DNA of 64,000 bases, from contig QPGO01000063.1 in the NCBI GenBank assembly GCA_008632985.1, positions 310,001 through 374,000 of the forward strand, written 5' to 3'. The stretch comes from Psammoneis japonica (Eukaryota). A model generated the notes under the pieces. The model was not told where the DNA came from, ran no database searches, and worked only from the letters and a program-made list of their open reading frames with translations. The stretch's first letter is position 1. Every line of letters begins with the position of its first letter. Shown piece after piece: positions 1-62,626 of this stretch. The position numbers and the translations under genes are program-made.

Positions 1-40
1 TGCTCTTACTGATAGCTTGTAAAAGTAAAAGTTGAAAGTG

Positions 41-126
41 TGGAGAGACCTGCCTACAGGCACCCAAAAATCACCTAACACGTTGGAGAGATCTGCCTAC
101 AGGCACCCAACAATCACCTAACACGT
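41..126. repeat. Tandem duplication of a 43-bp unit
   Basis: tggagaga(c/t)ctgcctacaggcacccaa(a/c)aatcacctaacacgt occurs at 41-83 and 84-126. Confidence 0.85.
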
Positions 127-520
127 AACACGTTGCATTCCTTCGCATCCCTTCGTCGCCTCCACACTTTCCCATGGCAACAAACAAACACCACACCATC
201 ATCCCTGTTGAGTTGGTGCGATCGGCGGATCGGGACTACCCACAGTCAGATCCTAACGCTATCAATACTCTCTAGAGTTTTAATTTTAGCTTCACTACTG
301 AACACAGAAAAATAGAGTACTTGCTAACTACGTATTATCAATTTGCGAGACAATATTCAAGCCATCTTCCCCCCTCAACTTGTGTCACTCACGATGAGAC
401 CGTTTCAGTAACTCTATCTTTTACTAATGATCTCCACTAAACATGCACTTCCAAACAATCGTCCACAACCCAGTGAAAAGACTACCTCATCACAACTGTC
501 CGCGCATTCCATCATTCCTT

Positions 521-835
521 CTAGGTCTTAGCTCTACAGGTGGTGACGACTCCTGCAGAAAAACCAGAATTCTTGTTCAAGCCCATGTCAATTGCACCCG
601 TAAATTCGTCGCGTTTCAAATACGCATTCAATGCAACTGAAACTTCGAGGTTCCCAAATGATGCCGCAACAGCCTTGGAAAAAGCATCGGCCTTGGCGCT
701 AACCCTGGTATAGGCCTCCGCTTCTGCGTCTCTACAATACTCGTCGATTTTAACTGGCTTACACCAAGGGAATGGGTGGCTACCGCAGAAATCCACCAAC
801 CACTCTATGCAATTTTGAATCCAAGTGTAACTGGC
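521..835 (-). pseudogene. Orphan 3' coding fragment, possibly the C-terminus of the secreted protein at 7346-8375
   Basis: Open frame ASYTWIQNCIEWLVDFCGSHPFPWCK...TTCRAKT* with no ATG. It shares Ala/Ser-rich composition and a C..P..WC motif with the 7346-8375 protein on the same strand. Confidence 0.4.
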
Positions 836-948
836 TAGCAGGGGGGTCAGACGGTCGGTGATGACGTTTCGTCACTTATAGGGGTCATTTCATTACTTAA
901 AGGGTTCGTTGAGTGCCGAGGCGAGTGACCGGGTGCCGAGGCGAGTGA

Positions 949-1110
949 TGCAGTGTCTCGCACCTTATTTTTCTGATATATAGTATTAATGACCCTATTA
1001 GATATAACGGAAGCCGTTGTAACGGGCTTCGCTGAAAGCGACCCTCGTTACCTCGGTCTTTCGCTCACAATTTTGTCATCACTGAAGTCTTTATCTCGTA
1101 AAACCTTGCA
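949..1110 (+). repeat. 5' LTR
   Basis: Matches 6175-6336 at all but 3 positions. Confidence 0.97.
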
Positions 1111-1139
1111 CTGTAATTACAGTCGATTTAAAGAACTGG

Positions 1140-1355
1140 ATGGAGACTAGGAATAATACAAACAAATTGACTAAACGTGAGAAAAGAGAACTACGCGCAA
1201 GAGCAGCAGTTTGGGCTGTTGAGCACCAGAAACAAGTGCAACAACGTAAACGACACGAACAGAATTTGGCGAGCCGAGTGCATCATTTGGAGTCAAAGGT
1301 AGAGTCCCTGGAGAGGACCATTGAACAATTGCATTCCCTTTTTCATGATGAGTGA
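1140..1355 (+). CDS. Small basic/leucine-zipper ORF upstream of gag
   Basis: 71 aa. A basic stretch (KREKRELRAR...QRKR) is followed by L-x6-L-x6-L-x6-L (LASRVHHLESKVESLERTIEQL). Its 3' end overlaps the putative gag ATG. Confidence 0.5.
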   Translation: METRNNTNKLTKREKRELRARAAVWAVEHQKQVQQRKRHEQNLASRVHHLESKVESLERTIEQLHSLFHDE

Positions 1356-2567
1356 ATCGTTGAAGGAGCCTTGCATTAGCCATGAAGCCAAATTTGAGCA
1401 TTCTGACTTGGAGGAAGTGAAATTGACCCAATCGCATGATGACGGCAGCACTCGTACAAAAAAAGTGTCCGCGTTTTGATGGTGCTCATGGTGTTGAAGC
1501 ATTGTCATTCGTTGAGGATCGTTTTCGTAAAAATTGCTGTGAAATTGGAGCACACTGCTGGCGAGGAATTGTTCGAAAATTTCGAGGAAGTGCTTGCGGA
1601 TGCTGCAGAGGACAAGTGGGCGAACTTGACCAATGCAGTTGACGATGCCGATAAAACTGTCGAGCGTTTTGATCAGGAAATCAATCGTTTTTACTTGTCT
1701 TATTGTGATGATGAAGCGCGTGACACTTTGATTGAACATTTGCCAACTTTGAAAAAACCATTCAAATCTGAAGTGCAGGCGCATGCAGATCGCATGGAAA
1801 CCCTGATTCGGTGCTCCAACAAACTTCCAGGAAATGCTCCTCAAGTCAACGAAGCTCAGAAGAAAAAGATGATGTTCGACAGCTTTCCTCGTCCGTGGCA
1901 TGAGATGTGTGCTCGAGCAGGACGAGCGACAGCGAACGACACTCTCGCTGAGATCATCAGCCACATGAACAACGAGAAATCTTTTGCTGACAAGAGCAGC
2001 AACAAGAAGCAGGACAAGAAGAGAAAAAGCAATGGTGCTTCGTCTCAAGCTTCAAGACGCTCTCGTGGCAACAGTGGCAGAACGGATCCAGAATCTAGAT
2101 GCCCGGTGCATGCGAATCACGACCACAAGTGGAAGGATTGCATTTTGAATCCAGAAAGCCAAAACCATCGACCGAGGTCCGACCGTGGCGGTCGTAGCGG
2201 AGGTCGTGGTGGAGGCCGAGGAAACCACCAAGGTGGAGGACCCCAAGGTCAAGGCGGTCGTAGCAACTTCCAAGGTCGAGGACGTGGCAATTGCGGCAAT
2301 CAAGGAGGACATGGAGGCCGAGGTTACGGCAATTATGACAACTCCCAGAATTCTCAAGGGAATGGATCCCACTGCCAAAATCAAAACGGCACCCAAGCCA
2401 ACGGTGACACCCAAGGCCATGGAAATCCGGCTGGAGCAGCTGCTCCTGGTGGCTGGCAAATGGAGTCGCACCATTTTGATCAAGGAGGGCCTCGTGAGAT
2501 GCGAGGTGGAAATGGACACGATCAGAACGGTCGCACCCATCAAGGCCAACGAAGTTGGCGCAATTGA
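1345..2567 (+). pseudogene. gag: gag of Ty3/gypsy (frameshifts in poly-A runs near 1460 and 1530)
   Basis: Capsid-like region, CHHC knuckle CPVHANHDHKWKDC and RGG-rich C-terminus. The N-terminus is distributed over more than one frame, joined at A homopolymers. Confidence 0.8.
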
Positions 2568-5500
2568 CAAGGGACGGAAGTGCCCGAGTCAGAGCGTGTC
2601 GCTCAATCTTTTTATGTTTCGTGTGATCGTGAAGAAAACACATGTTTTAATGTTGATGACAATGTGGGAGACCTGATGGAATCTTGTGCTGTGAATGAAG
2701 AAAAATTGGGCGGCGTTTTGGAGTGCGCTGCACCAACCCCTAAAACCATGACTCCTGAACCATTGAATGTGGTGCCAACGACGTTGATGGCGGTGCGTGC
2801 CATTCAAAATCAAGAGAGCAAGCGAGTGTCACGAGTGCCATTGGATTCAGGAGGTGCTGACACTCTCATTCATTCTCGAGTTTTGCCGAAGGGAACGAAT
2901 CCAACCATGAACGATGAAGGACGGTTGAGCTTTCAGACGGCAGCCGGACGATGTGAATCCTCCCGATGCGTTGTTGTGAAGGACTTGACATTGCCAGAAT
3001 TTGACAAGTCAAAACAAGTCGACAGCATTGCGGCTCAAGTATTTGATGCCCCATGCAAGTGTGATTTAATTTTGGGACAAGACTTTTTGTCGAAAGCCGG
3101 AATCGTGCTTGATTTTCGATTTGGAATGATGAAGTGGTTGGAAACGTCGATCCCAATGAAGCAATCCAATCATTGGAACTCAGTTCAGAATTGGTTGGAT
3201 GCACTGGAAGATGACGGAGAGGACGAAGACGATGAGGGAGCCTTCGGACAATCTTTTATGATGGACACCAAATGCGAGAAAGTGTCATCCGCGAAAGTGG
3301 CGCAAGCTCAAACTCACTTAACTCAAGAGCAACGTGATGAGCTACAGGCAGTGCTTGAAAAGCATGAAACCCTCTTTGATGGAATGCTTGGCAAACATCC
3401 GCATGAGACTGTTCACTTGGAAGTTGATCCCAACGCTGTTCCCTTCCATTCTAAGGCTTGCGAAGTGTCCAAGAGGGATGAAGCCGTTTTTAAGAAAGAA
3501 CTGCAACATTTGTGTAACATTGGCGCATTGGAGCCAGTGGGACCAACTGAATGGGCAGCCGGAACTTTTGTAACTCCCAAAAAGGATGGACGAGTTCGAT
3601 GGGTGTCCGATTTTCGAGAGTTGAACAAGGCACTCAAACGAAAGGTCTATCCTCTGCCGATCATTCAAGACGTTATTCACCGACGCTCGGGATGCAAGTG
3701 CTTGACCAAGTTGGACCTCACTGTGTTTTATTGTCACATCGAGCTTGACGAAGAATCCAAGGATTTGTGTGCCATTGTTGCTCCGTTTGGAAAATTTCGA
3801 TGTTGTCGATTGGCAATGGGTTTGAAAACCTCTCCTGACATTGCTCAAGCCATCATTGAAAAAGTGGTAAAAGGAATCGATGTTGAAACTTACATTGATG
3901 ATATTGCTCAATTTGATGATTCGTTTGATGCTCACATGCGTCGACTCGATGAGCTGTTGTCCAGACTAGAAGAGAACAATCTAAAAATTAACCCACTCAA
4001 GTGCGAATGGTGTGTCCAAGAGACGGATTTTTTAGGCCATTGGCTCACGCCTGCAGGAGTCCGACCGTGGAAGAAGAAAGTGGAAGCGGTGCTACGAATG
4101 CAACCACCTAAAACTATGATGCAACTGCGATCGTTTGTTGGTGCGGTGACTTATCATCGCAACATGTGGCCTCGTCGTTCACACGTGCTCGCTCCACTCA
4201 CGAAGTTAACAGGCAAGAGCAAGTTGGAATGGACCCCTGAATGTCAACGAGCCTTTGAAGACATGAAAACCTTAATGCTGGACGACACCCTTTGGGTCTA
4301 CCCGAATCACAACAAGCCATTCCATGTTTATGCTGACTCTTCAGACTGTCAGATGGGAGCCGCAATTATGCAAGACGGGAAACCAGTAGCTTGCTGGTCC
4401 CGAAAACTCAGCGCAGCACAACAGAACTGCTCTACGATTGAAAAAGAATTATTGGCGGTGGCAATGTGTTTCAAAGAATTTCAAAGCATGTCATTTGGAG
4501 CTGACTGTACTGTTTTTATGGATCATAAAAATCTCACCTTTCGTACGCTCAATTCTCAACGAGTTCTCAGGTGGCGACTCTTCTTGGAAGATTTTGCCCC
4601 AACTTTTGAATACGTTGATGGCAAAGATAATCTCTTGGCGGATTGTTTTTCAAGATTGCCGCGCATGGACCCTCCTACGGAAGGGAAGTGTGCTCCTAAC
4701 AAGGGCAAACTGATTGATTTTAAAACCATCGACCCTGCTGTGCTGCCGCATGAAGAAGAACTGGACGACCAAAACAGTGTGTCTTGTTTTTCCTGTCGTC
4801 GTGAAGAACCATCTCCATTTTACTCTTCCGTCGTGGACGACCCCGAATTGTGTGAATCATTTTTGAACTGTCCTTCTCTCGAGGAAATGCAAAACCCTGC
4901 AACCATGCAATGAATTCAAGAACACCAATTCATCGACGTGGAGCTGAACAACATGCGACAACAATGTCCAGAACGCTTCATGGTGGAACATGTGAATCAG
5001 CGTCCTGCAATTTGTTGTCGTGCTCGACCGAATGATCCTCCGACTGCGTGGAAAATTTGTGTTCCAACGGCGTTGCTGCATGATGTCATACGATGGTGTC
5101 ACAGAATTTTGGGACATGCAGGAGTGCACCGAATGCATTCCACTGTTGGCGCACATTTCCATCATCCTGCCCTTCGTCAATCCTGTGAAAGATTTCATTG
5201 TGCCAATTTTCAACGTTTGAAAACTTTGGGCCCTGGATGTGGGGACCTGCCTGAACGGGAAGCGCCTTTGTTGCCATGGACAGAAGTTGCGGTTGACCTC
5301 ATCGGTCCCTGGAAAATTGAAATTCAAAACCATGAAATCGAATTCAACGCTTTGACTTGCATTGATGCCGTTTCGAATGTGACTGAACTTGTTCGCATCG
5401 ACAACAAAACCTCATCTCACATTGCTCAACAATTTGAAAATTGTTGGTTGTCTCGTCATCCTCGTCCGAACCGGTGCATCCATGACAATGGTGGAGAATT

Positions 5501-6062
5501 CATTGGAGAGGACTTTCAATTGTCATTGCAACGAGCAGGAGTGGAAGACGCTCCAACTGCGTCGCGAAACCCACAAGCCAATGCGGCATGCGAACGCATG
5601 CATCAAACTGTTGGAAATGTCTTGCGCACTTTGCTTCATGTTTGTCCTCCACAGAATGTTGAGCAGGCTGATCAACTGGTGGACAATGCATTGGCAACCG
5701 CCATGCATGCAATGCGATGTGCGGTTTCTCGTGCTCTCAAGATTTCACCCGGTGCCATGGTTTTTCAACGTGACATGATTCTTGACTTGCCGGTCCTGGC
5801 CGATCTTGCCACCATTCAAGAACACCGACAAGCGATTGTCAATGCGAATCTCCGTCGAGCCAACGCTAAACGCCGGTCCTGCGATTTTCAAGTTGGTGGA
5901 CACGTTCTACTCAAGGCCATCGACCCAACCAAGCTCGAGCCACGAGCTCACGGTCCATGTCCTGTCGTTCAAGTCCACGCTAACGGTGCGATTACGGTCC
6001 AACGTGCACCTCATGTGACGGAACGATTGAATGTTCGTCGTGTCGTCCCGCATCGCACCTGA
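2568..6062 (+). pseudogene. pol: pol (protease, RT, RNase H, integrase) with in-frame TGA at 4911-4913
   Basis: PLDSG protease, YIDD RT, ADSSDCQMG/EKELLA RNase H, and integrase VDLIGP..HDNGGEF..CERMH, with GPY/F degraded to GPC. ORFs 2580-4913 and 4938-6062 are in the same frame. Confidence 0.95.
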
Positions 6063-6174
6063 GGTTAAGGGTTTTCTCCCCAACATTTGGGTTTCCCTTC
6101 TATCCTCATCCATTGGAATTTAAATTTTTTGAGTCCCGCATGATTCTCGACACTCGAATCATGGAAGGGAAGAG

Positions 6175-6336
6175 TGCAGTGTCTCGCACCTTATTTTTCT
6201 GACATATAGCATTAATGACCCTATTAGATATAACGGAAGCCGTTGTAACGGGCTTCGCTGAAAGCGACCCTCGTTACCTCGGTCTTTCGCTCACAATTTT
6301 GTTATCACTGAAGTCTTTATCTCGTAAAACCTTGCA
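6175..6336 (+). repeat. 3' LTR
   Basis: Matches 949-1110 and is preceded by a polypurine tract. Confidence 0.97.
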
Positions 6337-7169
6337 AGTGACCCAAATATGACGTCAGTAACAGGCTAGTGACCGAGTGCCGAGGCGAGTGACCCAAATA
6401 TGACGTCAGTAACAAGGCGAGTGACCGGGTGCCGAGGCGAGTGACAAATTTACATAACGTAGCTGATAAATTCACATAACGCAGCAATTTATTACAGACT
6501 ATGACCGTAGACTAGTATAATGTATATACATATAAATATTAAGTTTATGCAATTTGAATTTATACATTATTATGTCTATTAAGTTTATTATTATGAAGTT
6601 GGAATGCCAACGGTAAAAGCCACACGAATGCAGTGCGAGTCATCACGCTGATGCGTCCGACGAACCGGATTGAGCCACGATGACACCCAAAGCGCCGCAA
6701 AACAGCAACAGTGAGCCAAAAAGACGCAACAGGAAAGCACAATAGTGGGGTATCGTTGCACCACTATGAGTAGTTGAAGCGACCAAAAAAGAGGCGCGCC
6801 GCGACGAACAAAAGCAACAGCAACACGCACCATGCACGAAACTCATCGAAACGGCGTCAAAACAGCACAACGCAACGCAACAGCAAAAAAACCAACGCTC
6901 CCAACGAATCACAAACATCAAAATTAGTCATACACATTGCTCTTACCTCCCGAATTGCGGTGCGTCAGTCGATTTATAAGCGGCCGTGAGTCCATGGCGT
7001 GTCGTCGTCGTGAAAGTGAGTATTGTGTGTGTGAAATTCTGCACGAAAGCGGTCCCGGAAAATCGATTCAAATTGTGACTGTTACGTAGAATCCTACGTG
7101 GTAAGTATGAGCACTGGCTACTCCGACTGTCTTTTATAGATATATACAGTATATAATCCTGCTTATCCA

Positions 7170-7359
7170 GTTACCGATATAACTGGCGATACTGAAGACT
7201 TCAGCCTACCCATCACCGTGCTTCGGACATTTTTGATAGGCTTCAGGCCATGTCTTCAGGCACTGCGTGCCTTCAGACATGTCCTTCAGCCCATCAAAAA
7301 TGTCCTCGGCCGGTGCCGGTCGGCTTCAGTCGTCACTCTCGCCAGTTATTTACAGTAAC
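7170..7359. mobile_element. Small inverted-repeat (MITE-like) element
   Basis: Left end gttaccgatataactggcga versus right end (reverse complement) gttactgtaaataactggcga, with internal cttcag repeats. It lies exactly where the 7346-8375 frame stops. Confidence 0.5.
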
Positions 7360-8375
7360 CATCTGCATCGGCGACGACATCTGTGATGGCAGAAGTAACC
7401 GTTTTGGCTCTGGATTGAGTGAAGCTCGACGCTCCTCCAACCACAACAGCCTCAAAGAAATTGATACTCCTGCCTTTGGATATCACGCTTACTAACTGAG
7501 AATTTCTGGACTCTGCAAGCGAACGGGAAAAAGCGGATGACGTGCTGACAGCATCAGCCTCGCCAGTAGCTTCCACTTCCCCATATCCTTCGGTACACAT
7601 GCGATGCCTGATCCACCTGTGACTACGCGGGAGGTTTTGGCACATTGCATTCGGTTCAACCGCTGCACCAGCTGTCCCTTGGGAGAAAGCTGCAGCTTCG
7701 GACTCACTTCGGGCGAATGCCACAGATAGTGTACACGTGTGCAACTTCGATTTGAAATTGACTTCGGGGATCGGCCCGATACGTCCTATTTGCTTGACGG
7801 TGAGCTCAGCTTGCCCAAGAACCATGGCGTTCAGCCTTGTGAGGGACTTAGCCTGTGCCCAGCAGGTGGCCCCAGCTTCCACCATTGCGTAGACCGCACT
7901 CGCATCAGGTTCGTCTCGGTACAATTTTGCGAATTCAAACTCTTCGATAACTTTTGAGTTGCACCACTCGATAGGATTGATGCACAAGTCTTTCGCCCCC
8001 AGCCAGTACCAGACATAAACACTCATAATATAGGTGCTCGTGCCATCGGGATTCGTCACTTTTCTGACACCTTTGGGCAAGACACCTCTATTCCTTTGAG
8101 AGGGTCGCGTACGTCGTAAATTCCGATGCTCTTGCTCGTCTCCTTCCAAGACGACAACGCCACCATGTTCTTCTTCAACAGGACCACCTTCATATAGGTC
8201 TTCAAGCTGCACCTGCTAGGCGAGCAAGGAATGCAAATGAGAACGGGGATAATACAATATGAGAAAGACTCCGTTTTTCATGTAGCACTTACTGAGGCAT
8301 TGTTGTCCTCAGCGACCGATCCACTGACGCCAATGGCGCAAGCGGCCAACAGGAAAGCAGGGAAAGGAAACGCAT
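7346..8375 (-). CDS. Secreted hypothetical protein (2 exons; intron 8213-8292), probably 3'-truncated
   Basis: Exon 1 gives signal peptide MRFLSLL(F)LLAACAIGVSG if one T is restored in a homopolymer. Intron is GTAAGT...CAG. Exon 2 is a 288-aa ORF with an RNLRR processing-like motif. TpA content is normal. Confidence 0.6.
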
Positions 8376-9188
8376 GGTTGTCTAAAAAGTGAAGAGTCAA
8401 CGTTATGGGTTTCTCGTAAGTGTTCTCTCTTTATGATTTTGTTTTTTTGTGAGAGAAACGAGAAGTGATTTGACGAAGTGGTCTCGAAAGACTCTCGAAT
8501 TCTCGTTTGATAAATGATCACAACATCATTTTTTATTGTGACTGACTAATTTGTCACGTTCGGGCTAGCGCTACGACGCACGTACGGTATGTACAGTAAT
8601 TTGGTGTTTACTTATCAACGCATGTCATGCATGTCCTGAAGTCATTCCCAAAAACCGCAAGACATGATCGATCACATTCTCATTGGCGAAAGGGTCATGT
8701 TGTAAAACACTTACCAGGTGCGCTGAAACTGGCACTTAGACCTGATGCAGACATGCAGCACACATGTCCAAAGTGAAATGACTTGTGACGAACGATCCTG
8801 TTGCCTTCCCTCTTTTGTTTCGGTGAGCGAAAATGACGGCCGCACATGCGAGCAAGGCACTCTGCCAGGACCAGAGGTGGCAACAACTGGAAGCGCAGCT
8901 CCAGCTCCATTCTGAATCTGACACCAACATCACAGCCAATGAAAGGACACTTTGAGTTTCCCCGCAGTTGAAAAAACTGTGGGAGCTTGCAGGGTGGTGC
9001 CCCAAAATGCTCAGAAATGCCACCTCCCACTGCTGCTGCCCTGGATTCTCCCAGTCGCAAATGCCTCCTGTGTCTGTTCTTGTCTTTCAAAATGACGCTC
9101 AGGCTCACCTTGTCACCGCTTGGCACAATCTGCACCACCAGGGGAGTGCAAGGCTTGAGAACTTCAAACAATTCATCGGCAAGGCGAG

Positions 9189-9843
9189 CACTGCAAACAA
9201 AATCCTCAATCTTTAAAGGCACCAACTCTGGGACACACGCTCCATCAGTGCAGTGTCCAGCAGCACGTTCGACAACACAAGACGCATTCCAGCTCTGGGT
9301 GGGACCTCGCACCGGTGCCACTGCACTGTGACATCAACAGTTTTTTGGATCGCGTCGCATGTCGCGCACACACATTTCTGCGTGTTGTGTTCTACAAAAT
9401 TGTTTCATGCTCCCTGTTTTGCGAAGCCAAAGGCTTTCTATTTTCAACATTTGTGTGAGAACAAAAATGCGCTGGGTGTGTTCTACAATGTCTGCAGAAC
9501 ACACCCGGGCAAACCATTGCAAACAAAATCCTCAATCTTCAAAGGCATCAACTCTGGGACACACGCTCCATCAGCGCAGTGTCCAGCAGCACGTTCAACA
9601 ACACAAGACGCGTTCCAGCTCTAGAGGTGGGACCTCGCACCGGTGCCACTGCACTGTGACATCAACAGTTTTTTAGATCGCGTTGCATGTCGCGCACGTG
9701 CATTTCTGCGTGTCACATTCTATGAAATTGTTTCATGCTCCCTGTTTTGCGAAGCCAAAGGCTTTCCATTTTCAACACTTGTGTGAGAACAAAAATGCGC
9801 TGGGTGTGTTCTGTGATGTCTGTAGAACACACCCGGGCAAACT
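9189..9843. repeat. Tandem duplication of about 325 bp (flank plus left part of MITE)
   Basis: 9189-9514 is repeated at 9515-9843, and many of the differences are TA/TG/CA or CG/TG/CA. Confidence 0.85.
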
Positions 9844-10013
9844 GTTGATGATGTGCTCCAAGTGTGAAGGAGGAGATGCGTTCGTAAAATTGCCTCTTTT
9901 TCTGTTGGCGATCATTTGCATTTTCATTGCAGCACAAATTTGCTGCAGAGCTCGCACGTAGAATTCTGCGGGCCCAATGTCACATGGAGTCCCACCTGGG
10001 ACTGGAACCCATC
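9607..10013 (+). mobile_element. MITE family A (about 400 bp, TIR GACG.GTTCCAG, 4-bp TSD ACAA)
   Basis: gacgcgttccag...ctggaacccatc flanked by ACAA on both sides. Related copies lie at 9281-9514 (truncated), 58427-58832 and 63302-63697. Confidence 0.85.
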
Positions 10014-10899
10014 ACAAGCTGCTCCATTTGGCCCAGCATTGCAGACACAACTGTTGGCATCTCCTTTGTGACCACAGATGTTTTTGGTGCAATCGTTGCC
10101 ATCGTCACAATCAGCATCGACACAACACCTGCAACGGCGACAATCGGGCATTCCCAGTGGTGAAGAAACAATTTTCCCAATTGTGCCGGTGCCTTCAGGC
10201 TGGTGATCCACATCCAGGTGTGGATCCCAGAAACCAGCTGGACAAACAATGGGCCCATGTTTGGGGGGTTCAAACAACCTGGAACACATCACAGCATGTT
10301 CAGCAGTGCACTTGCACAACCAGGACATTGGGTGCCAAAATCCACCAAGCATGCTTGTTTGCACTGTTTGGGAGTGAGGCAATCATCACTTTGACAGATC
10401 TTGCAGATGTGTCCATTGCCATCTTTGAAATTGACAAAGCCAACATGTGTGCGATGGCAGCCACATCCGATGTTGGGGAGACAACAGTCATCTGGCATTC
10501 AAGTTGCATGCCAGCCATGCATGTGCCATCCTCACACCTTTCAGCTCCATTGCCTGTGCACTCAACACAACCAAGAAACCTGTCACATGTTTCTTCAGGT
10601 TGGCAGACAAGCTCCATTCCAGCCATGCACATGCGGTCATCCCCGCATGTTCCTTTCCATTGCAGACATGTCCGTCATCGCATTCATTGTCGTGGTGCAT
10701 CTGTGGCTGGCAGGAGGCACAAAAGGTTCAAGGTCCTTTTTGGTCCTGAGATGCCCACGCTCCTCCTTAAGGGACATGGCTCTGCCCAAGACAATCACAG
10801 CAAAGATCGCCTTGGTGAAGTTCATTGTCGCAAAAACTTGGCTGGTGTTTCGTCTGCTGTTTTCAACCACTGACAAATCATTGTGGACATGATGGTGGC

Positions 10900-13800
10900 A
10901 CAACAATTGCAACAGCAGGCAATGTCAAAAAGGAAAGAAGGGCAGCCAGTTCAATGTGTTTTGATGAATGAATCCAAACAAAATGTCCACAAGTGTCAGA
11001 CAGCACTGTGGGGCAGCCAATTTCACAAGACAAATGAAACAATTTGAGCCGTAGCCACGATCAACACCATCGCAACGAGTGATGAGTTGCCAGATTTCAA
11101 AACAGTCAAGCAAGCTGTGACATGTGTGAGTGACAAGGGAAGCCACCATGGGCATTTTTTTTCAGAATGTCTGTGTGGTCCAATGTGCGCATTCCCGGAA
11201 ATCCACACTGTGCATCAAACTCAAAGGTTCTCCCCAGTTGACGTGTGGAGGCATGCTCCACCTCATCTTCTCCAAGGCAAAGATTCTTTAAGAAGATGCA
11301 GGAATGCATTGCCTTTGTCATCAATGTGCCCTTTGCAACCACATTGTCCTTCACGAGCTGGAAGTGGGTCTTCACCATTGAATCTTTGCAATTTCAATCG
11401 ATGGCATGCTTGAGTTTCCTGGCATGTGACTCTGTTGTCAGGACTGTCTTCAAAATCCATGCTGGAGCACACCAGTGGTTGCATTGCACCCCATTTTTTG
11501 GCTTGCAGGATGTCATTGAAAATGGAGCAGACAAGTTTGTGATCTTCCCTTCATGGCTTGTGATTGCAATTGAATGCAGCACAGTGCAGGCATCCCCCGA
11601 GCTCATCACCATGTGTTCTGATTGGTTCTTTGTGCAAAGCTTCATGGTCCAATGGGCACAATGAGCATGCACACCCCACTTTGCCATCACCATGGAGTTC
11701 CAACCACTGGTCATGCATCTCTTTGTCCAACTTCTTTGAGTGCTCCTCTTGTCTCTTTGCTCCTCTCTGCAGGCATTCTTGGAGGTGAGTTGGACAATGG
11801 GGCACATGCTTTTCCACAGTGTGCTCACCATGAATGTTGCAGCAGCACCTTTGAATCATCTGCTTTGGAGGAAAAACTTCAGAGCATTCTTTGCAAAGAG
11901 CTTGCATTTTGGGATTGATCAGAGTGTTGGGCATTCCCAGTGAGTGCTGGTGTGGGTCCTGCCTTGCATTCTGTGACAGTCACAATTGCTGTGGTGAGTC
12001 CCATCCTTTTTCTTAGAAAAATTGGAGCTCTTCCTTCAAGGCATCTGGAACAACTTGACGGCAGATTTCCCATTTCATGGTCATCCCTCACATTTCTTCT
12101 CCTCTCTTTTGTTGCTCTGCTCTGTTTCTTCTCTCCTCTCTGATTGCATTTTGTGCCCACGTTGCATGGCAGGACATGTGTTTGCATGAATCCCTCTGGG
12201 AGGACGAGTTTTTGTGGGGATGTCAACTTTTCAAATGTGCTCATCTGCCTGTCAACATTTGTGCAGTGACATGACACACCACCCTCCCAGATGGTGGGAG
12301 ACATTTCCATGTCATGCCAGCATGTCACAGGCCCACCCCAGCCAACCCTTTTATGCTCAACTGCAGGAACACATGCAATGATGATTTGAAATCAAAAACC
12401 ACCATTTTCGGTGGCATGCCAACTTGCTTGCATCATCAAGCCTCTTCAGTTGAACCCAACATTGTGTCATTCTTCAGCACTCATTGTTTTTGCCATGGCG
12501 CACTCCTTTTTTGATTCGGACTTGGACAATGACTCCATTGGCTCAGATGAATTTAGGCATTGTCCCAGCAATGACAATGAGGACATCTCTAACATGCCGT
12601 CACTCACTGCACGGCAGCCCAATCTCAATGTGTCGGATGATGAAGATGACAACAATGTGACAAACCCACACTGGCCACTGCCACCAATGCACATTGCACA
12701 GCTGTTGCTGCTGCTGCTTTGTGTCAGGATGAAGCCAACAAAGAAAACCCTCATGATCACACAGGAGATGGCTGGCATCAAAATGGTGGTGACAATTTTG
12801 ATGCACAAGAGGAAGAGAAGGAGGACAACAATGCCCTGCTGTGTGACTGCACTGGCCTGCACAACATGCTTGGTGTTGTTGACATGGCATTTTTGGGGTT
12901 GGAGTCAGAGTGGAAAAGCCCTGTCATCATGCCCATTTCCATTTCAGTTGCCAAGGGAATCCCACCATCCCATTTTGTGGAAGATGACATCGCTGAGCAT
13001 TTGGGCAGCAGCTTGCAGGCAAATCTGCACAAAGGTGCTCTCACTCATTTTGACACTTTGAAACACCCCCTCCACCACCACACTGGCCAAGGGCTGCAGC
13101 AATGCCAAATCAAAAAACAGCGTGTTGTGTGCAGACCTCCAATTGCTTGGCCATGCTTCAGGATTTGAAACAAAAGCCAACAGCTCCAGCCTCATCCTTT
13201 GAAAATCCCATCTCAAGCACACTCATGACAAAGACCAGACTCTTCACCAGCAAGTTCTCTTGGGAACTTGAATGACTTCAAAGTCTCGACACTGGGTGAG
13301 GAGCTTGTGCTCATGTCAACCTTCATGTTCACATGCCAAGCTGTCTCGTTCAATTCCAGCAATTCACAAGGGAATCTGTTGACAACACATTCAAGCATTC
13401 TGGCATTGTCTTGTCCAGGCAAATGAACAGCAAGAGCCTTCATGCCAATGCACTCAAACAAGGGAGCATCCTCAAAAATGGCATCTCAAAACTCTCGCTC
13501 TTTGTGGTTGTCTTGTCTTGCTTCTTCTCCCTGACAAATGTGAGACTCAAAGTGTCTCTCTCTGGAGTGCTCTGCCAAGCTGTGTGGAGTAAAAGATCAC
13601 AAGCTCATGGTGCTGCATGTGCAGTGAGGAGCAAGCAAGTTGCTGGGAAAGTGTGAGGAACACAAGGCTTGTCAGCTGTTGCAAGGACACATTGTGTGCA
13701 CATTTGAAGCAACACAAAAAAGCTGTGAAAGTGTGTGGCACGCAAGTTTGTCTCCAACAAGTCATTTGATTGACACTTTGAAGTCTTCAATTGCAAGGTT

Positions 13801-16800
13801 TTTGCCCACAGAAGAAACATCAAATGCCCAAAATGCAGCAAACTGACAAATGTGCTAAAACAGAAGCCCTGCACTTCATTGATGCTCAGACTTGCTTGTT
13901 GTTGACATGATCTCTGGATCAGCAGCAGATTGTGCTCAGGACAGGCCCTCCTCCTTCCAGCAGCTCAGCATGCTGATGCCACTTGTTCTTGTTCCACACA
14001 AACAAAAAAGAGCTTCAATTCTGGGGAGCTGTTTCATCAAGATTGGCACCCAATTTTGGTTGGCTTCAAGCTGCAAAGCTGCATTGTGGCATGCAATGGG
14101 GAGTGAACCTGCCCCCGCACTCACAAATCTGCCCTGCTGGATTTGACAGATGAAGGCAGCAGTGAATGAAGAGGATCCAAGAGGACAGCTTCCACCTGCA
14201 ATGGCTCTTGTCAAAAAACAATGGCTTCAGCCACCGGATCAATCGGCGGATGAGTTTTGGGTCACAGCAAGAGCCACTTTGGTTGCTCTGAGAGGTTTGC
14301 TTCTGTGGCAATTCAGACCACAACCGATTCTCCTGTCCAACAATGTTGCAAGAGCTTGTGCAAACAACCTGCTGGCATGAGTGGACGAGGCATGCTGAAA
14401 CTAGCTACACTGCAGGTGTGCACATTCCAGCTCTGGCAGTGGCAGCTCTCAAATTGTCAGTTTCACACTGCAGCAGTTAAGGCCTCAAAACGCCTTCAAA
14501 ATCACTGTCGTTGCATCACAAGAGTGTGAAAAGGATGGCAACCAACACGTCACGAACATTCAGACACCATCTCTAGACATGAATGTTCCTGTTCCTTCCC
14601 AAAAGATTGGCGACAAAGGATTTGCCAACCATTCAGATGTTGGTGCACCGGCATGATCAATCGTGCAAGAAGCATCGTGACCTGTTCTCCCAGTGCCATT
14701 CTGCCATTCCGACCAAGCTTTGTAAAACTTCCACAGAGCACAGGTCAAACAATTGAACAGATCATCACATGAATGATCTAGAGTTCAATGCTGCTTTCAA
14801 AGTGGAGAGAATCCAAGGAACCCTGGTTGCCACGGAAGCTTTGTTTCTTGCTCAGCCCATCAGTTCTTGAAAAGATTCTCACATCCAGGCTTGACTGGGG
14901 CCACCCAGCTCTCTTTGGATGCACCCAGCACAGCTGGGGACACAGAGCTTAGTCTCTGGTGCAATTCTCTGTGGCTGTCGAGTTGTCTCCACACAAAGCT
15001 TCAATGCACTGTTGCAGCCAGGGCACTTGGCATTTTGACTCTTGTTCTGTGGCAGAAGCATTGAGAGTTGAGTGCCAGATGAGCAAAGAGCACAAGACAT
15101 GGAAAAAGGGAGCACACAAAGCAGCTTGCAGTGTGCTTTTTCTGGTGGCAGCAATCTTTGTGTGTGCAGGTGTGCATGTGTTTTATGACTGATGCACATT
15201 TTTGCAAAAATCAATGCTGCATCCACAACAAGCCAAAGGCCCCCCACCCAAACACCCCGGGTGCTGTTGCATCAATCAGATCTCAGCAAGTTTGATGGAA
15301 ATGAGATGTGGGTTCATGGCCACACATCATGCCAAATGTTGAAATGGGCTGTGGCTTGGCATGGCATGACTGCAGCATTGGAGATCAAACATGAATTTCA
15401 AACTGCCAGCTGATTTCCAGGGGGGCATCTTCCAAAATGCCAAGTCCACATCAACCCCTGTTGTGTTGCCCAACATGCCCAAGACAACAACAGCTTGTCC
15501 ATGAGCCATTCAATGTGCTGACAGTTGAGCCGGCTACTCTGTGTGCACATGGTTGTTTCAGCTGTTTGCCATCATTCTTGTTTGACAGCAACAACTTGCC
15601 ACTGCATCATGTGGTGTGATGGCCACCCTGTGCTGCACAAAAATGGCATCACCCCCAATGAAAGCAATCAGGCAATGACACAATTCTGTCATGGCCAACA
15701 AAGTGCATGCCAAACCATGCTTTCAGACTTCCAAGTGGCAGAGCGGGCTTGCAGTGTGGCTCAGAAAGCCTTTGTGAATCACAAAATTCTCCAGTGAAAG
15801 AATTCACAACCTTGGAGGAAGAAAAAATGCCAATTGGACCCGGTGCAATGATGTCAATTCTTGCAAGAGAGATTGTGAGATGCTTCATGAAAAGCTGCAA
15901 GCAAAGGAGATGGTTGTGGCTGCTTTGATGAGCCAATGCATTGAAAAGCTGAGAAAGTGAGACAAGCTGCTTACAGAGCTCAATGTGCCAAAGAGGAACA
16001 TGGTCAACATTTTTCACTGAATCAAAGTGTTGGAAGAGTTGTTTGTCAGTGCCAAGCATTTGGTCAATGTGCAGCTCAAATTCCTCCTGAAGATCATGGT
16101 CACCTGTGCCATGCAACAATCATGATGGGAGCATGTGGAGTCATCATTGCCACAGTCATGTCACTGTAAAGCCCTGGGTGGCCCTTCTCCCCATGAAATG
16201 CTGCTTGCAAAATGCCACAATTCTCAACTGTGGCAATGAGTTTGACAACTGTGCAGTGTTTGCAATGCCAGTCAGAGAGTGCCTGCAACAACAGCAATGA
16301 TCACCTGGCAAGACAAAAAAACGGCACTGCCACAAACTTCTCACACAGGTTCAAGGAGAGCACCATTGGTCTCAGATGATTTTGACAGCTCATGCCTTCC
16401 TTGTGAGGCAAGCTTCCCCATTGAAACAACTGAAAAGTGCCACAACAAGGGAAACTCTTGCCATTTCATGAGTGCAGAATCTGGCACAAAGAGGCCCTCT
16501 TTGCAGCCTGGCTTCATTTTTGTCCCTGGCAATGTCTGGTGGCCTGGGGGTTTGTCACAAGCATCTTCACAAGTTTGGCTTTGGAGGGTGTGGTGCTGCA
16601 GAGACAGTGTGGTGTGACATGAGTGATCAGGACAAACTTCGGGTGGGTGGGACAAACAAACAATGTGCCAGGACCTCTGCACCTGACATCTGCACAATGA
16701 CCAATTTTTTTGCATTGCTTGGCAAAACACCTGCACGCACCTCATCAACTTTTTGAAGACAAGCTGTGCTCATTGCCAACAAATTTGGGTTGAATTGATC

Positions 16801-17270
16801 TGGACAAAGCTCAAATTCCTGTGACATTGCAAGGCACATGGCACAATTGTGCACACCTTGGTTCATCACTCAATTGTGCTGTTTTGCCCCAGATGGGGAC
16901 AAGATCATGAAGCCCACTCATGGCTGCCACTCCTTTTGTCACCGTGCTCCAAGCAACTTCTGGCTGCTGGTCCTTGCCCCACCTGGCTTTGTCTGTCAGG
17001 CAGCACGCCCATCTCAAAGTTGCTTTCCAGCTGATCTTGAGGTCCTTGCTGTCTGTCTCATTTGCATCTCCCTCCTCATCTTGAGGTTCTTGCTGTCTGT
17101 CTCATTTGCACCACCCTCCTCAGTTTGTGATTGAGTTTCCTGTGCAACTCATCATCATCAATGTCAGAGGGGCCAGGGATTGCTTGGGGTGCAGCCTCTT
17201 TGACAGGTTGGGTTGGTCTGCCCTCATCCACCCAGGTTGCTTGGGGGGTTTGCTGACTTTCAACTGCTCT
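10900..17270. other. Heavily eroded TpA- and CpG-depleted relic sequence, family not assignable by eye
   Basis: Only one TA in 13201-13800. Fragmentary protein-like stretches occur on both strands. Confidence 0.6.
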
Positions 17271-17274
17271 GGTG

Positions 17275-18330
17275 CCCCATGTGTGCACTGGGCGCTGAAA
17301 AGAAGATGTGTCACGACCTTGTCGTTGTGAAAATTGTGAGCTAGTTTAGAGCAGAGAAAGTGGGATCGTGCGAATGGGGAATCTTGCCAAATCCCCATTC
17401 GTTCGCATTTGGATCGTATCAAATCGATCGTGTGTTTGCATTGTGGATCGTGCGAATCAAGCCATCACGCGCTGTGCACGAGTGATGTCATCGTGTGGAA
17501 TCACGCCACCATCGTGGGCCAGACGACGGGCTAGTGTGCTTCACACGGATGCTCTCTTAGCATCCTCCTGGAATTTCCTAAGACCTAGAGCCATGCCCTC
17601 CTGTGGTCGTGCTTCCCAGGTGCGTGTTGACAACACTGCGTTGTCATGCACAAGAGGCTCATGCACGGTCTCACCATGTTGTCCAGCAGCGAGGCATGCT
17701 GCACACTCCCCCATGATCAGGGCCGTCAAGTGACAGGATGTCTTGCTGGTGACAGGGTGCAATCTGCCGTAGATTGTGCGCATCTGTCAGCGCTCCATTC
17801 TGGGTGCGCAACGTGCCGTTGTCATGTGCACGGACAACTCTGGCGGGTCCTGCATGGCTGTCAGAACTGCATTTAGAGGATTGCTCCTGTTTGACAAGTG
17901 CCAATTGCCCTGCGGCACATTGATGCTCCTTGCGTTTCTGATTTTCACGCTTGTCATTCAAGTGGACAAGCTTCTGCTTTCTGGTTTCTGTGCACTTCCA
18001 CTCAGCACGATGGGCAACAGATGAAACCGCATCGCGTCAGGATGCTAAGAGAGCATCCGTGTGAAGCACACTGGCCCGTCGTCTGGCCCACGATGGCAGC
18101 GTGATTCCACACGATGACATCACTCGTGCATGGCGCGTGATGGCTTGATTCGCACGATCCACAATGCGAGTGCACGATCAATTTGATGTGATCCAAATGC
18201 GAAGAAACAGGGATTTGGCAAGATTCCCTGTTCGCACGATCCCACTTTCTCTGCTCTAAACTGGCTCACAATTTTCACAACGACAAGGTCGTAACACATC
18301 TTCTTTTCAGCGCCTGGCACACACACAGGG
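17275..18330. mobile_element. MITE family B with about 290-bp TIRs; TA TSD mutated to TG (left) and CA (right); Tc1/mariner-like
   Basis: 17275-17566 is the reverse complement of about 18040-18330. Flanks are TG (17273-74) and CA (18331-32). Confidence 0.85.
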
Positions 18331-18393
18331 CACAGCAACATTGCTCCCGCATGTTGTGCGAGGTGACGAAATCTGCAGAAACGAAACTACAAA

Positions 18394-22100: not shown

Positions 22101-22500
22101 AGATGTGCTGCGACCTTGTCGTTGTGAAAATTGTGAGCCAGTTTAGAGCAGAGAAAGTGGGATCGTGCGAACAGGGAATCTTGCCAAATCCCCATTCGTT
22201 TGCATTTGGATCGTGTCAAATCGATCGTGCATTCGCATTGTGGATCCTGCGAATCAAGCCATCACGCGCCATGCACGAGTGATGTCATCGTGTGGAATCA
22301 CGCTGCCATCGTGGGCCAGACGACGGGCCAGTGTGCTTCACACGGATGCTCTCTTGGCATCCTTCTGGAATTTCCTAAGACCAGAGCCATGCCCTCCTGT
22401 GGTCGTGCTTCCCAGGCACGTGTCAACAATGCCACGTTGTCACGCACAAGAGGCTCACGCACGGTCTCGCCGTGTTGTCCAGTGGCGAGGCATGCTGCAC
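22095..22500 (+). mobile_element. Truncated copy of MITE family B left arm
   Basis: Aligns to about 17298-17704 and lacks the terminus. Confidence 0.85.
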
Positions 22501-23940: not shown

Positions 23941-24117
23941 GAACCAGCAAAAGATCCTGTCCGTGTGTGTTGGTTTGTCTGCAAAATCTTTTTTCGCGTG
24001 ATCTGGAGTCTTGCACAATTTTGTGTGACTGACAACTTGTCCCACAATCTGGTTGGGTCAAACAAGTCAAATTTGATGGCTGGATTTCATTCAAATCTCT
24101 GCATCAAAAACACACTC
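23941..24117 (+). repeat. Degenerate duplicate of the RAD52 upstream region (24857-25035)
   Basis: Shared blocks tgtgttggtttgtctgca, caatctggttgggtc and tggatttcattcaaatctc. Derived changes include tttaacgg>tttgatgg and gtcgaacgag>gtcaaacaag. Confidence 0.8.
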
Positions 24118-24119
24118 CT

Positions 24120-24833: not shown

Positions 24834-24903
24834 TCATCATCACGATCAATCGATCAAAACAGCAAACGATCGTGTCCGTGTGTTGGTTTGTCTGCAGAAT
24901 CTT

Positions 24904-49500: not shown

Positions 49501-49516
49501 AGACCATTTGCTAAAT

Positions 49517-62531: not shown

Positions 62532-62626
62532 ATGGGGGGGGCAAGTGGCACATTGCCATTTTCTAAGAAAAATGAATGAATGCTGCCATGACAGCTGAGA
62601 ATTGGGTGCAAGACAAGACAGAGTGT

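Follow-up and report, generated by a model that had tools for sequence, protein, structure and literature searches.

Organization of the element

In the window, the whole 64-kb stretch of DNA analysed here, positions 949–6336 of the forward strand are a full-length Ty3/gypsy LTR retrotransposon that is dead in its coding sequence. The element is bounded by a 162-nt direct repeat at 949–1110 and 6175–6336, in which 159 of 162 positions are identical without any indel and the ends are TG..CA, as in real LTRs. The 5' LTR contains 14 TpA dinucleotides (observed/expected ratio, O/E, 1.06) and the 3' LTR contains 13 (O/E 1.01). A 5-bp target-site duplication, AGTGA, lies at 944–948 and 6337–6341, and when the flanks are joined around a single AGTGA, the resulting string also occurs at 6381, within the adjacent repeat unit. 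The 140-bp leader (1111–1250) is TA-normal, with nine TpA (O/E 0.84), and no tRNA-type primer-binding site was recognised in it by eye. Open reading frames delimit a gag-like region at 1436–2567, which occupies two frames (1427–1642 and 1443–2567) and ends with the TGA at 2565–2567. The tail of this region is RGG-rich, and a knuckle-like CPVHANHDHKWKDC is present; positions 1458 and 1529 are each one base that is absent in other copies (run X1), and a Pfam search with 1443–2564 gave no match.

The first part of pol (2568–4913), identified from Pfam and homologues, comprises protease-like, reverse transcriptase and RNase H segments, with matches to RVT_1 (E 9.7e-22) and RT_RNaseH_2 (E 1.7e-24) and to Asp_protease_2 at E 0.01, below the Pfam cutoff. 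It stops at an in-frame TGA (4911–4913), whereas homologues have one continuous ORF of ~1100–1200 aa. The second part (4914–6062) continues in the same frame and encodes the zinc-binding domain and core of an integrase, both just under Pfam's cutoffs (rve, E 2e-6; Integrase_H2C2, E 2e-5). A polypurine tract read from the sequence, GGAAGGGAAGAG, abuts the 3' LTR at 6163–6174. Among the matches listed, the named relatives of pol are diatoms, bar one metagenome bin labelled Bacteroidota. An adjacent gene with a coatomer-gamma appendage domain (35344–37203) finds its best named matches, which are 61% identical, in Nitzschia inconspicua and Bacillariaceae sp., and every named match among the 120 listed is a diatom. 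Judging from these matches, the host is a diatom, and the element probably lies in its nuclear genome.

Differences between the two LTRs

The LTRs differ at offsets 28, 35 and 128, namely T977/C6203, T984/C6210 and C1077/T6303, with no other substitution. Because A follows each of these sites, all three are TA in one LTR and CA in the other, as the first-pass annotation had stated in describing a pair that differs at TA/CA sites alone. If TA is taken as ancestral at all three, both LTRs would have been hit, the 5' LTR once and the 3' LTR twice. A transition at 27% of LTR positions could give a TA versus CA/TG difference (P = 0.02 for three of three), and the probability that all three hits fall among the 60 of 324 LTR bases within TA is 0.0064. 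When the looser class of any pyrimidine-purine (YR) step was considered, 107 of 1000 simulations matched the three differences, and differing positions numbered 3 of 80 at YR steps and 0 of 82 elsewhere (P = 0.12). The LTR pair by itself is suggestive, not decisive, evidence for a TpA process; the stronger evidence comes from the conserved Tyr codons of the element, the other repeat pairs and the TA-poor bins described below. The further claim that the process acts much faster than background is weakly borne out by the pair, with three hits in 60 TA bases against none in 264 others, a rate ratio whose one-sided 95% lower bound is about 2.6-fold by hand arithmetic. If TA is ancestral, the distances of the hits to the inner edge of their LTR are 34, 28 and 35 bp; a sum this small has P = 0.027 over all 4060 triples that can be drawn from the 30 TpA site-copies, in a test chosen post hoc.

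TpA loss in the interior and its sparing at the ends

The interior proved to be strongly TA-depleted, as had been noted before, with an O/E of 0.21 across 1111–6174 and 0.18 across 1251–5860 against the values near 1 in the LTRs. A single TpA, at 5089, is left in 4822–5866, and the segment 5861–6174 is intermediate between ends and interior (O/E 0.38). The RT-RNase H part is less depleted than the integrase part at equal depth. Since five related metagenome elements have TA at 0.45–0.71 and TG above CA, part of the interior deficit and the excess of TG over CA are a family baseline. TA is at a normal level in the two flanks, the two LTRs and the leader as far as about 1250; the LTRs carry no CA/TG excess, and 27 of their 30 TA site-copies are intact. 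Although 13 of the 15 LTR TpA sites are in contexts that are removed most efficiently elsewhere, they are hardly touched, contrary to what would be expected of a process that acts uniformly on DNA.

The effect on the protein was followed at tyrosine codons, using an alignment of the first 45 homologues of at least 1000 aa among the 120 matches listed. Columns with Tyr in at least 70% of the 45 homologues were taken as conserved, which gave 23 columns. At these columns the element has Tyr in 7, Cys in 11 (all TGY), His in 4 (all CAT) and Phe in 1; conserved Tyr is thus lost at 16 of 23, in 15 cases to Cys or His, whereas other conserved residues are kept in 68–100% of columns. The seven surviving codons all lie within 3648–4611, and none of the five in the integrase part (4914–6062) is kept. 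Tyr content is 0.77%, compared with a homologue mean of 3.32% (minimum 2.56%), and Cys content is 4.04% compared with 1.96%. Four columns have Tyr in all 45 homologues; the element has lost it at every one of them, so function gave no protection. The sense strand carries both products (11 TGY and 4 CAY, together with NTA-to-NCA changes), and the unmutated RT of a second element in the window gives a direct view of the same Tyr-to-Cys/His contrasts.

Retention of TA in the LTRs (27/30) and of conserved Tyr in pol (7/23) differs with Fisher P = 9e-6, a contrast that a single process acting evenly after insertion cannot produce. The ends of the element are spared by the process, or else the interior was damaged before insertion. 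The description of a young element that was crippled quickly is not supported as worded. The statement that the process acts after insertion is supported in so far as a TA-specific transition process exists in this genome and probably acts on resident DNA, as seen in Tyr codons, repeat pairs and the TA-poor half of the window, and in line with the spectrum of Bigelowiella natans discussed below; for the timing of the interior damage it is not supported.

Regional pattern and other repeats in the window

TA O/E is below 0.15 in 33 of the 64 1-kb bins, where CA+TG reaches 1.6–2.0, while genes in the window have 0.4–0.6 and a few spots, including the element flanks and the bin 55001–56000, are at about 1.0. 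Across bins, TA is correlated with CA+TG at r = -0.90, and TA depletion accompanies CpG loss (r = 0.78). About half of the surrounding DNA has been rewritten by a TA-to-CA/TG process, with TAY/RTA contexts removed first. In the interior of the element TA is 0.18 while CG is 0.91, and in old blocks of the window these are 0.01–0.1 and 0.06–0.3, respectively; TA decay precedes CG decay, and the TpA process outpaces ordinary CpG decay. The element family is multi-copy, with a summed contig depth of 2000–3600 versus about 59 for single-copy DNA. The element flanks are repeated 5–9 fold, yet their TA is not depleted. The most TA-depleted block, at 10.7–16.7 kb, is single-copy at at least 80% identity, and a search of it for mobile-element domains recognised none, so that targeting of mobile elements stays a candidate reading.

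As comparison material, we used a nested or rearranged cluster of a second gypsy family on the forward strand (17298–22500). Its 407-bp LTR copies, in the same sense at 17298–17704 and 22095–22500, are 91.6% identical and have no matching target duplication, and the cluster includes an inverted pol-plus-LTR fragment (17743–18333), a TA-normal island (21000–22060) that adjoins a heavily hit LTR copy, and, near 20950 inside one continuous RT ORF, an abrupt edge at which unmutated and mutated sequence meet. The LTR pair differs by 32 transitions and one transversion; 30 of 33 differing columns are in YR-to-YR events (null 17.2 +/- 2.7, 0/1000 simulations), 10 CA/TG double differences are present, and YR positions differ at 31 of 219 versus 2 of 187 others (P = 2.6e-7). 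Given the nested cluster and the unmatched target duplication, these differences may partly predate insertion. The tandem pair 9189–9514/9515–9842 shows no transversion and 24 transitions, 20 of which belong to YR events (7/1000). No significant signal was obtained for the LTR against the inverted copy (9/14 in YR events, 109/1000 simulations) or for the palindromes at 19832–20323 (14/49, 125/1000) and 7170–7359 (2/24, 729/1000).

Origin of the TpA loss

We favour, at a probability of roughly 0.7, a recent insertion of a coding-dead gypsy element in a diatom combined with a process that turns TpA into CpA or TpG, in which the LTR hits came after insertion and the interior is off the LTR clock because LTRs, leader and flanks are spared. 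Such a process would be concentrated on the mobile-element and repeat DNA of this genome. As the most likely chemistry, already proposed for B. natans, the adenine of TpA in DNA would be deaminated to hypoxanthine and then copied as G. The LTRs would owe their three differences to TA-to-CA hits after integration, a single one in the 5' LTR and a pair in the 3' LTR, 15 of the 23 conserved pol Tyr codons would have become Cys or His codons by the same process, and a role in defence may be considered.

It is quite conceivable, at a little under even odds, that the interior was damaged before this copy was made, in a defective lineage moved in trans by intact relatives or in a reverse-transcription recombinant. 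On this reading the TpA process would still exist, and what is disputed is when the interior damage arose. The contrast between LTR TA and conserved Tyr fits it, as does an LTR clock by which insertion was followed by hits at about 10% of TpA sites; in a multi-copy family helper copies might be available, the edge near 20950 resembles a recombinant mosaic, and Tyr loss that is blind to conservation suits a lineage without coding constraint. However, the LTRs and leader of the source copy would have been exposed equally long, yet the LTRs lack TA loss and CA/TG excess, and all 15 LTR TpA sites would need purifying selection.

Alternatively, a domain-limited or homology-dependent (RIP-like) process on integrated DNA might spare the outer ~250–450 bp of each copy and cripple the interior after insertion, as the first-pass annotation held, with the LTRs barely reached, an account we hold only tentatively. 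The profile of TA agrees with it, being normal in flanks, LTRs and leader, 0.38 at 5861–6174 and 0.18 between, and so do the LTR hits near the inner edges, in a post hoc test that assumes ancestral TA, and the heavy damage that the second, high-copy family shows in its 407-bp LTRs and that the 162-bp LTRs lack. Present copy number is no predictor of depletion, however: the single-copy block at 10.7–16.7 kb is the most depleted, the repeated flanks are undepleted, RT-RNase H and integrase differ at equal depth, and the TA-normal island borders a heavily hit LTR copy.

Editing of adenine at TpA during retrotransposition, on RNA or single-stranded cDNA in the particle, would make the element dead on arrival with near-identical LTRs and seems unlikely. 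In APOBEC3-edited retroviruses, editing is low downstream of the polypurine tract and of the primer-binding site, a pattern that the spared LTRs and leader resemble, and identical LTRs around a hypermutated interior are the classic picture of such proviruses. Since both products are on the sense strand, the damage was not confined to one strand. It does not peak immediately upstream of the polypurine tract (O/E 0.38), the LTR differences go in each direction, unlike a single editing window, and the spectrum recurs in the tandem duplicate, LTR copies and blocks without retroelement signature; in the accessible part of the preprint cited below, the B. natans process acts on integrated DNA.

That nothing special occurred, and three chance transitions met ordinary TpA under-representation of coding DNA, is very improbable: TpA is low in the related elements and many genomes, and the events are few (n = 3) with the YR simulations permissive, but the loss of 16 of 23 conserved Tyr against 0–32% for every other residue, the TA O/E of 0.01–0.1 across 33 of 64 kb and the 10 double differences in one 407-bp pair (0/1000 simulations) contradict it. 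Fungal-type RIP in its usual direction, C-to-T at CpA with CA ancestral and TA derived, is scarcely credible even though CpA-to-TpA is the classical RIP change and diatom DNMT4 enzymes group with fungal RID in the accessible text of PMC9998398, because it would enrich TpA and deplete CpA/TpG where TpA is nearly gone and CA/TG is at 1.8–2.0, and Tyr codons are lost here, not gained.

Comparison with known systems

Fungal RIP depends on sequence homology, takes place before meiosis and involves a RID-type enzyme. The damage described here shares with fungal RIP its restriction to transitions in genomic mobile-element copies, the missense-riddled, indel-poor copies and the blocks of aberrant composition beside normal genes; RIP raises TpA, mostly through CpA-to-TpA, and here TpA is destroyed. 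APOBEC3-hypermutated retroviruses and endogenous retroviruses likewise combine near-identical, less affected LTRs with a hypermutated dead coding region, although APOBEC3 deaminates C on minus-strand cDNA, giving G-to-A on one strand only, and the changes seen here affect A/T pairs at TpA on both strands, with the same spectrum in non-retroelement repeats. ADAR hyper-editing of repeat-derived double-stranded RNA is similar in being A-to-G with a preferred 5' U/T neighbour. It acts on RNA with a loose neighbour preference, in contrast to changes fixed in DNA on both strands, including the tandem duplicate, and to our knowledge ADARs are confined to animals. CpG decay of methylated TEs accounts for the CG-to-TG/CA changes, one half of the spectrum, and for their restriction to repeat blocks, and diatom TEs are CG-methylated according to the accessible text of PMC9998398. 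TpA is out of reach of CpG decay, and the young element has lost TA with its CG still at 0.91.

The pattern matches the TpA-to-CpA/TpG spectrum measured directly in mutation-accumulation lines of B. natans (Mettrop et al., bioRxiv 10.64898/2026.01.13.699255). In the accessible part of that preprint, two viral inserts gained 231 de novo mutations, of which 230 were A-to-G or T-to-C and lay without exception on TpA, and TpA-depleted coding sequences were enriched for reverse transcriptase and DDE domains. The dinucleotide target and the two products are the same, the effect is regional, not genome-wide, with neighbouring host genes much less affected, and the long-term signature is low TpA with high CpA+TpG. 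The hosts differ, a diatom (stramenopile) here and a chlorarachniophyte (rhizarian) there, as do the targets, LTR retrotransposons and unannotated blocks as opposed to integrated NCLDV/virophage DNA. The footprint here is historical, where de novo mutations were measured there, and heavier, with TA O/E below 0.15 in 33 of 64 kb against 0.43 at the 5% tail of B. natans. CpG loss runs alongside here, while the term CpG is absent from the preprint text, and the accessible text likewise mentions neither the TAY/RTA context nor the spared element ends. A literature search found no report of TpA hypermutation in diatoms; as far as the accessible sources tell, the TpA-to-CpA/TpG process has one earlier report, from 2026, in the unrelated alga B. 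natans.

Structure and coding state of the element

The element (949-6336, plus strand) is bounded by a 162-nt direct repeat (949-1110 and 6175-6336) whose copies are identical at 159 of 162 positions with zero indels, and these long terminal repeats (LTRs) have TG..CA termini. A 5-bp target-site duplication, AGTGA, borders the element on both sides, and the target site, when rejoined by removing the element, is found again at 6381 in a neighbouring repeat unit. The polypurine tract GGAAGGGAAGAG (6163-6174) directly abuts the 3' LTR, and no tRNA-type primer-binding site starting with TGG was seen 3' of 1110 in a by-eye reading made without a tRNA set for comparison. From ORFs and Pfam, a gag-like region is followed on the plus strand by protease-like, reverse transcriptase (RT) and RNase H regions (2568-4913) and by an integrase (4914-6062) in one frame with the upstream pol. 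In the ORF at 2568-4910, RVT_1 matches residues 337-492 and RT_RNaseH_2 residues 555-648, and the ORF at 4914-6059 carries Integrase_H2C2 and rve; these last two matches and that of the protease score below the curated Pfam cutoffs. The Pfam order, protease - RT - RNase H - integrase, is that of Ty3/gypsy elements, and in homologues all four domains lie in a single ORF of about 1100-1200 aa. The element is a member of Ty3/gypsy (Metaviridae) but a dead copy that is not autonomous: its gag is split over two frames, its pol is broken by an in-frame TGA (4911-4913) and 16 of 23 conserved tyrosines are lost.

For copy number, contigs of three DNA sequencing runs from one sample were placed on positions 1-20000, which gave 1642 variant places. 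Contig depth summed over the element was 2000-3600 versus about 59 for single-copy DNA (run X1), and the ratio therefore points to some tens of family copies at 80% identity or more, or about 35-60 copy-equivalents. The flanks are a low-copy repeat (depth 300-530, 5-9 fold) that is not TA-depleted. At 1458, most of the family contig depth lacks one base present in this copy, and at 1529 about half does; both bases lie in or near the gag A-run, where either the gag frame differs from that of relatives or the assembly carries a homopolymer error. Contigs of runs X1 and X2 link 831 to 7418 via 58 other letters, so that the element is bypassed together with some 1.2 kb of its flanks. In the protein collection no further copies of the family were found, the best matches listed having 62% (near-length) and 67% identity (shorter search). 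Five metagenome loci with 47-60% identity were too distant for an outgroup and so served as a composition baseline only.

The window is nuclear DNA of a diatom. Near the element are genes for Rad52, for an ankyrin protein, for a PhyH dioxygenase and for a large protein that bears a coatomer-gamma appendage domain. The best named relatives of the last are from Nitzschia inconspicua and Bacillariaceae sp. (61% identity), and every named one of the 120 hits listed comes from a diatom. The named relatives of pol among the matches listed are likewise diatoms, bar one metagenome bin labelled Bacteroidota.

TpA changes in the LTR pair and in conserved tyrosine codons

The first-pass annotation had described the LTR pair as differing solely at TA versus CA, and this holds: all three differences in 162 bp (977/6203 T/C, 984/6210 T/C and 1077/6303 C/T) are followed by A, and no other substitution is present. 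The probability that three random transitions all give TA versus CA/TG was 0.02, and it was 0.0064 when the condition was only that all three fall in TA bases; with the class widened to every pyrimidine-purine (YR) step, the result was equalled in 107 of 1000 simulations. By hand arithmetic, the TpA rate in the pair is at least about 2.6-fold above that of other sites. With one 64-kb window and three LTR events as the evidence base, the TpA bias of the LTR pair is by itself suggestive only.

Stronger contrasts are found in the coding interior. We aligned the element pol with 45 full-length homologues, the first 45 of at least 1000 aa among 120 listed, and took the columns with tyrosine in at least 70%. 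At these 23 columns the element has Tyr in 7, Cys in 11 (all TGY), His in 4 (all CAT) and Phe in 1, so that 15 of the 16 lost tyrosine codons are now TGY or CAY, while other conserved residues of pol are retained in 68-100% of their columns. Accordingly skewed are the overall contents, with Tyr at 0.77% of the element protein versus a homologue mean of 3.32% (minimum 2.56%) and Cys at 4.04% versus 1.96%. Further replacements fit the TA rule: Thr to Ala occurs six times, five of them after a T-ending codon, Ile to Val occurs five times, with a T before three of them, and NTA to NCA yields Leu to Ser/Pro as well as Val to Ala. When the unmutated RT of a second gypsy element (17298-22500) was aligned to that of the element, the same contrasts appeared, for example YY against YH, or Y against C. 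Four columns hold tyrosine in 45 of 45 homologues and all four have lost it in the element, and functional selection therefore did not shape the interior.

The five metagenome relatives have TA observed/expected (O/E) ratios of 0.45-0.71, with CA at 1.12-1.20 and TG at 1.30-1.40, and this family baseline accounts for part of the low TA and of the TG-over-CA excess of the interior. We do not count the sense-strand bias (TG 1.50 versus CA 1.23; Cys 11 versus His 4) in favour of RNA or transcription-coupled editing, because the relatives share TG above CA, the 11:4 ratio is not significant (binomial P = 0.12) and tyrosine codons are all TAY on the sense strand.

YR changes in other repeat pairs and the second element

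The second element belongs to another gypsy family, with 407-bp LTR copies at 17298-17704 and 22095-22500 that differ by 32 transitions and one transversion. In this pair, 30 of 33 differing columns fall in YR-to-YR events (null 17.2 +/- 2.7; 0/1000), and differences are 13 times as frequent at YR positions as at the others (31/219 versus 2/187). When an ancestral TA (or CG) is resolved oppositely in two copies, the outcome is a CA-versus-TG double difference; the pair has ten of these, and the shares of ancestral TA and CG are inseparable. Both TpA common to the two copies are YTAR. Between the units of the tandem duplicate at 9189-9842 there are 24 transitions and zero transversions, 20 of the 24 in YR events (7/1000), and a diverged duplicate adjoining a gene has 61 of 132 in YR events (1/1000). 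In four further repeat pairs the YR events were weak or null (9/14, 109/1000; 14/49, 125/1000; 2/24, 729/1000; 29/75, 36/1000). Tandem units at 9189-9842 belong to a repeat family that at 9339-10005 reaches a summed contig depth of 78100, roughly 1300 times the depth of about 59 seen for single-copy DNA; copies that have diverged lie at 58.4-58.8 kb and at 63.3-63.7 kb. Taken all together, a TA-specific mutation process exists in this DNA.

Within the otherwise depleted second element, an island at 21000-22060 is TA-normal (O/E 0.8-1.5) with normal CG; it encodes the RT C-terminus and RNase H, is Tyr-rich and has intact motifs. The edge between mutated and unmutated DNA is sharp, lies near 20950 inside one continuous RT ORF and showed no internal polypurine tract; the island is followed immediately by an LTR copy that is heavily mutated. 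Just after the first LTR, an inverted pol fragment and an inverted partial LTR copy occupy 17743-18333, and the cluster at 17.3-22.5 kb is therefore nested or rearranged; its two same-sense LTR copies lack a matching target duplication. A tblastn search of the window with 40 gypsy pol homologues hit the two elements, a single inverted fragment and nothing else, with zero matches in the large depleted blocks. Three spacer-less palindromes were seen as matches to their own reverse complement, at 19832-20323 (492 bp, 81% identity), where the protease region of the second element is duplicated inverted, at 7170-7359 (190 bp, 76%) and at 62173-62534 (362 bp, 66%).

TA-depleted blocks and sequence context

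In 33 of the 64 1-kb bins, TA O/E is below 0.15, many bins having 0.01-0.06; CA+TG in these bins is 1.6-2.0, and CG is 0.06-0.3. Genes in the window have TA of 0.4-0.6 and the blocks 0.01-0.1, and block edges are sharp at 1-kb resolution; TA is normal in the flanks of the element and in bins 21001-22000 and 55001-56000. Across the window, TA correlates with CA+TG at r = -0.90 and with CG at r = 0.78.

Context was counted in 30.9 kb of depleted blocks (10001-17000, 23001-24900, 29001-32000, 40001-53000 and 56001-62000). Surviving TpA are YTAR in 66 of 119 cases versus 51 of 288 in TA-normal window DNA, whereas ATA (9/119 versus 86/288) and TAT (7/119 versus 93/288) are scarce, and this suggests the A in T-A-Y as the preferred target, a three-base preference. 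Tyrosine codons of the element survive in 1 of 9 cases after a purine versus 6 of 13 after a pyrimidine, a trend only. The TAY preference can account for the imbalance of 11 Cys to 4 His.

Since DNA with no TA has no TAA or TAG stops, long spurious ORFs arise on both strands. The depleted blocks within 9000-64000 hold 99 stop-free frames of at least 110 aa, on both strands and often overlapping, and 98 of them lack a credible Pfam match. The sole credible domain is a copia-type RT relic on the minus strand (50621-51013; RVT_2, E = 5.5e-7, just below the Pfam cutoff). The most depleted stretch, 10673-16675, has TA O/E of 0.01-0.11 and CG of 0.07-0.3. Run X1 shows it as single-copy, with a depth of about 59-195, and none of its ORFs of at least 110 aa contains a Pfam domain; it is either a very old element relic or a sign that the process is not limited to repeats.

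LTRs and interior differ in their record of the process

The LTRs of an element are identical at insertion and therefore time the process. TA is intact at 27 of 30 LTR site-copies, the LTR O/E is 1.06 and 1.01 without CA/TG excess, the 140-nt leader (1111-1250) has 0.84, and the flanks, at 0.80 and 1.18, are normal. The TA depletion of the internal region that the first-pass annotation reported was confirmed at an O/E of 0.18 over the mutated domain (about 1250-5860), though the baseline of relatives is already 0.45-0.71, and since CG there is still 0.91, TA loss precedes CpG loss. Read as a clock, the LTRs put the share of TA sites hit since insertion at about 10%, not 70%, and conserved tyrosine codons are kept at only 7 of 23 places inside (Fisher P = 9e-6 against the LTR count). 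One uniform post-insertion process therefore cannot explain both, and the proposal that the element is young but was crippled quickly after insertion finds no support, as worded, in this comparison. Thirteen of the 15 LTR TpA sites are in a susceptible context, so their survival is not due to context.

Three options can be weighed for this discrepancy. In the first, integrated DNA is targeted in its interior in a domain- or homology-dependent manner and the ends are spared; this is favoured by graded edges and, if TA is ancestral, by LTR hits at a distance of 28-35 bp from the inner edges of the LTRs (P = 0.027, the test having been picked post hoc). In the second, interior damage is inherited via trans-mobilisation or recombination, with which the sharp edge near 20950 in the RT ORF of the second element is consistent. 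The third, editing during reverse transcription, is disfavoured, with products on both strands and the same spectrum in non-retroelement repeats.

Present copy number does not predict TA depletion: the single-copy stretch at 10.7-16.7 kb is worst, and the 5-9 fold flanks are untouched. A simple rule in the style of RIP (repeat-induced point mutation) is therefore not established. In favour of a dependence on duplication above a length threshold, as in fungal RIP, the short LTRs of the element are spared and the high-copy 407-bp LTRs are hit; the single-copy stretch and the flanks speak against it.

Relation to known hypermutation systems

In Bigelowiella natans, an integrated giant virus and a virophage gained 231 de novo mutations, of which 230 are A-to-G or T-to-C, those all on TpA, at about 6e-7 per site per generation; a DNA adenine deaminase resembling ADAT2 is put forward as the cause (Mettrop et al., bioRxiv 10.64898/2026.01.13.699255). 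A measured de novo rate about 1000-fold over the rest of the genome is a mark of this type. The TpA hypermutation described here joins this newly described kind. It shares with that account the change of TpA to CpA/TpG, seen here in 3/3 LTR differences, 15/16 lost tyrosine codons and two YR-enriched repeat pairs. It differs in the diatom lineage, in its targets and in a footprint that is far heavier, and it shows two candidate features, a TAY context and the sparing of the ends. The words 'diatom', 'LTR', 'retrotransposon' and 'CpG' are absent from the main text of the preprint (10.64898/2026.01.13.699255).

Fungal RIP, in contrast, is C-to-T and raises TpA while lowering CpA/TpG, whereas TA here is 0.01-0.1 and CA+TG 1.6-2.0. 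APOBEC3 changes one strand, whereas the sense strand of the element has TGY (11) and CAY (4) as well as NTA-to-NCA. The mechanism is most likely TpA to CpA/TpG hypermutation of the B. natans type, which it matches in spectrum and products and apparently in regional confinement; by analogy with the B. natans proposal, the chemistry would be DNA adenine deamination by an ADAT2-like deaminase. A thymine modification behind the TpA change is possible, and the idea of dinoflagellate 5-hydroxymethyluracil was dropped because the host is a diatom.

As a far-reaching reading, to which we give roughly three chances in ten, diatoms would possess a RIP-like defence with another chemistry. It would act on DNA, be TpA-specific (TAY), probably proceed by adenine deamination and recognise retrotransposon copies as domains, destroying the coding interior within 2% LTR divergence while sparing about 250 bp per end. 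Dead elements would turn into TA-free, CG-free 'dark matter', about half of such regions.

Implications

For diatoms, neither TpA hypermutation nor a RIP-like process turned up in full-text literature searches that covered few subscription journals. For TpA-directed hypermutation, the 2026 preprint on viral inserts of a chlorarachniophyte is so far the one report. In genomes of this kind, the faster clock of TpA sites distorts dates taken from LTR divergence (3/3 differences here are TpA). Hypermutated elements slip past domain-based annotation, and the spurious long ORFs of TA-free DNA are a gene-prediction trap. Spared ends versus a destroyed interior give a concrete handle on the targeting of the process. 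The much heavier footprint in diatom retrotransposons would mean that the process is not peculiar to a single alga and not restricted to viruses. Fungal RIP would then have a second counterpart, of a different chemistry, in a major group of marine primary producers. If the reading of a diatom defence is true, TpA hypermutation would, together with Bigelowiella, be an old defence across SAR (stramenopiles, alveolates, rhizarians).
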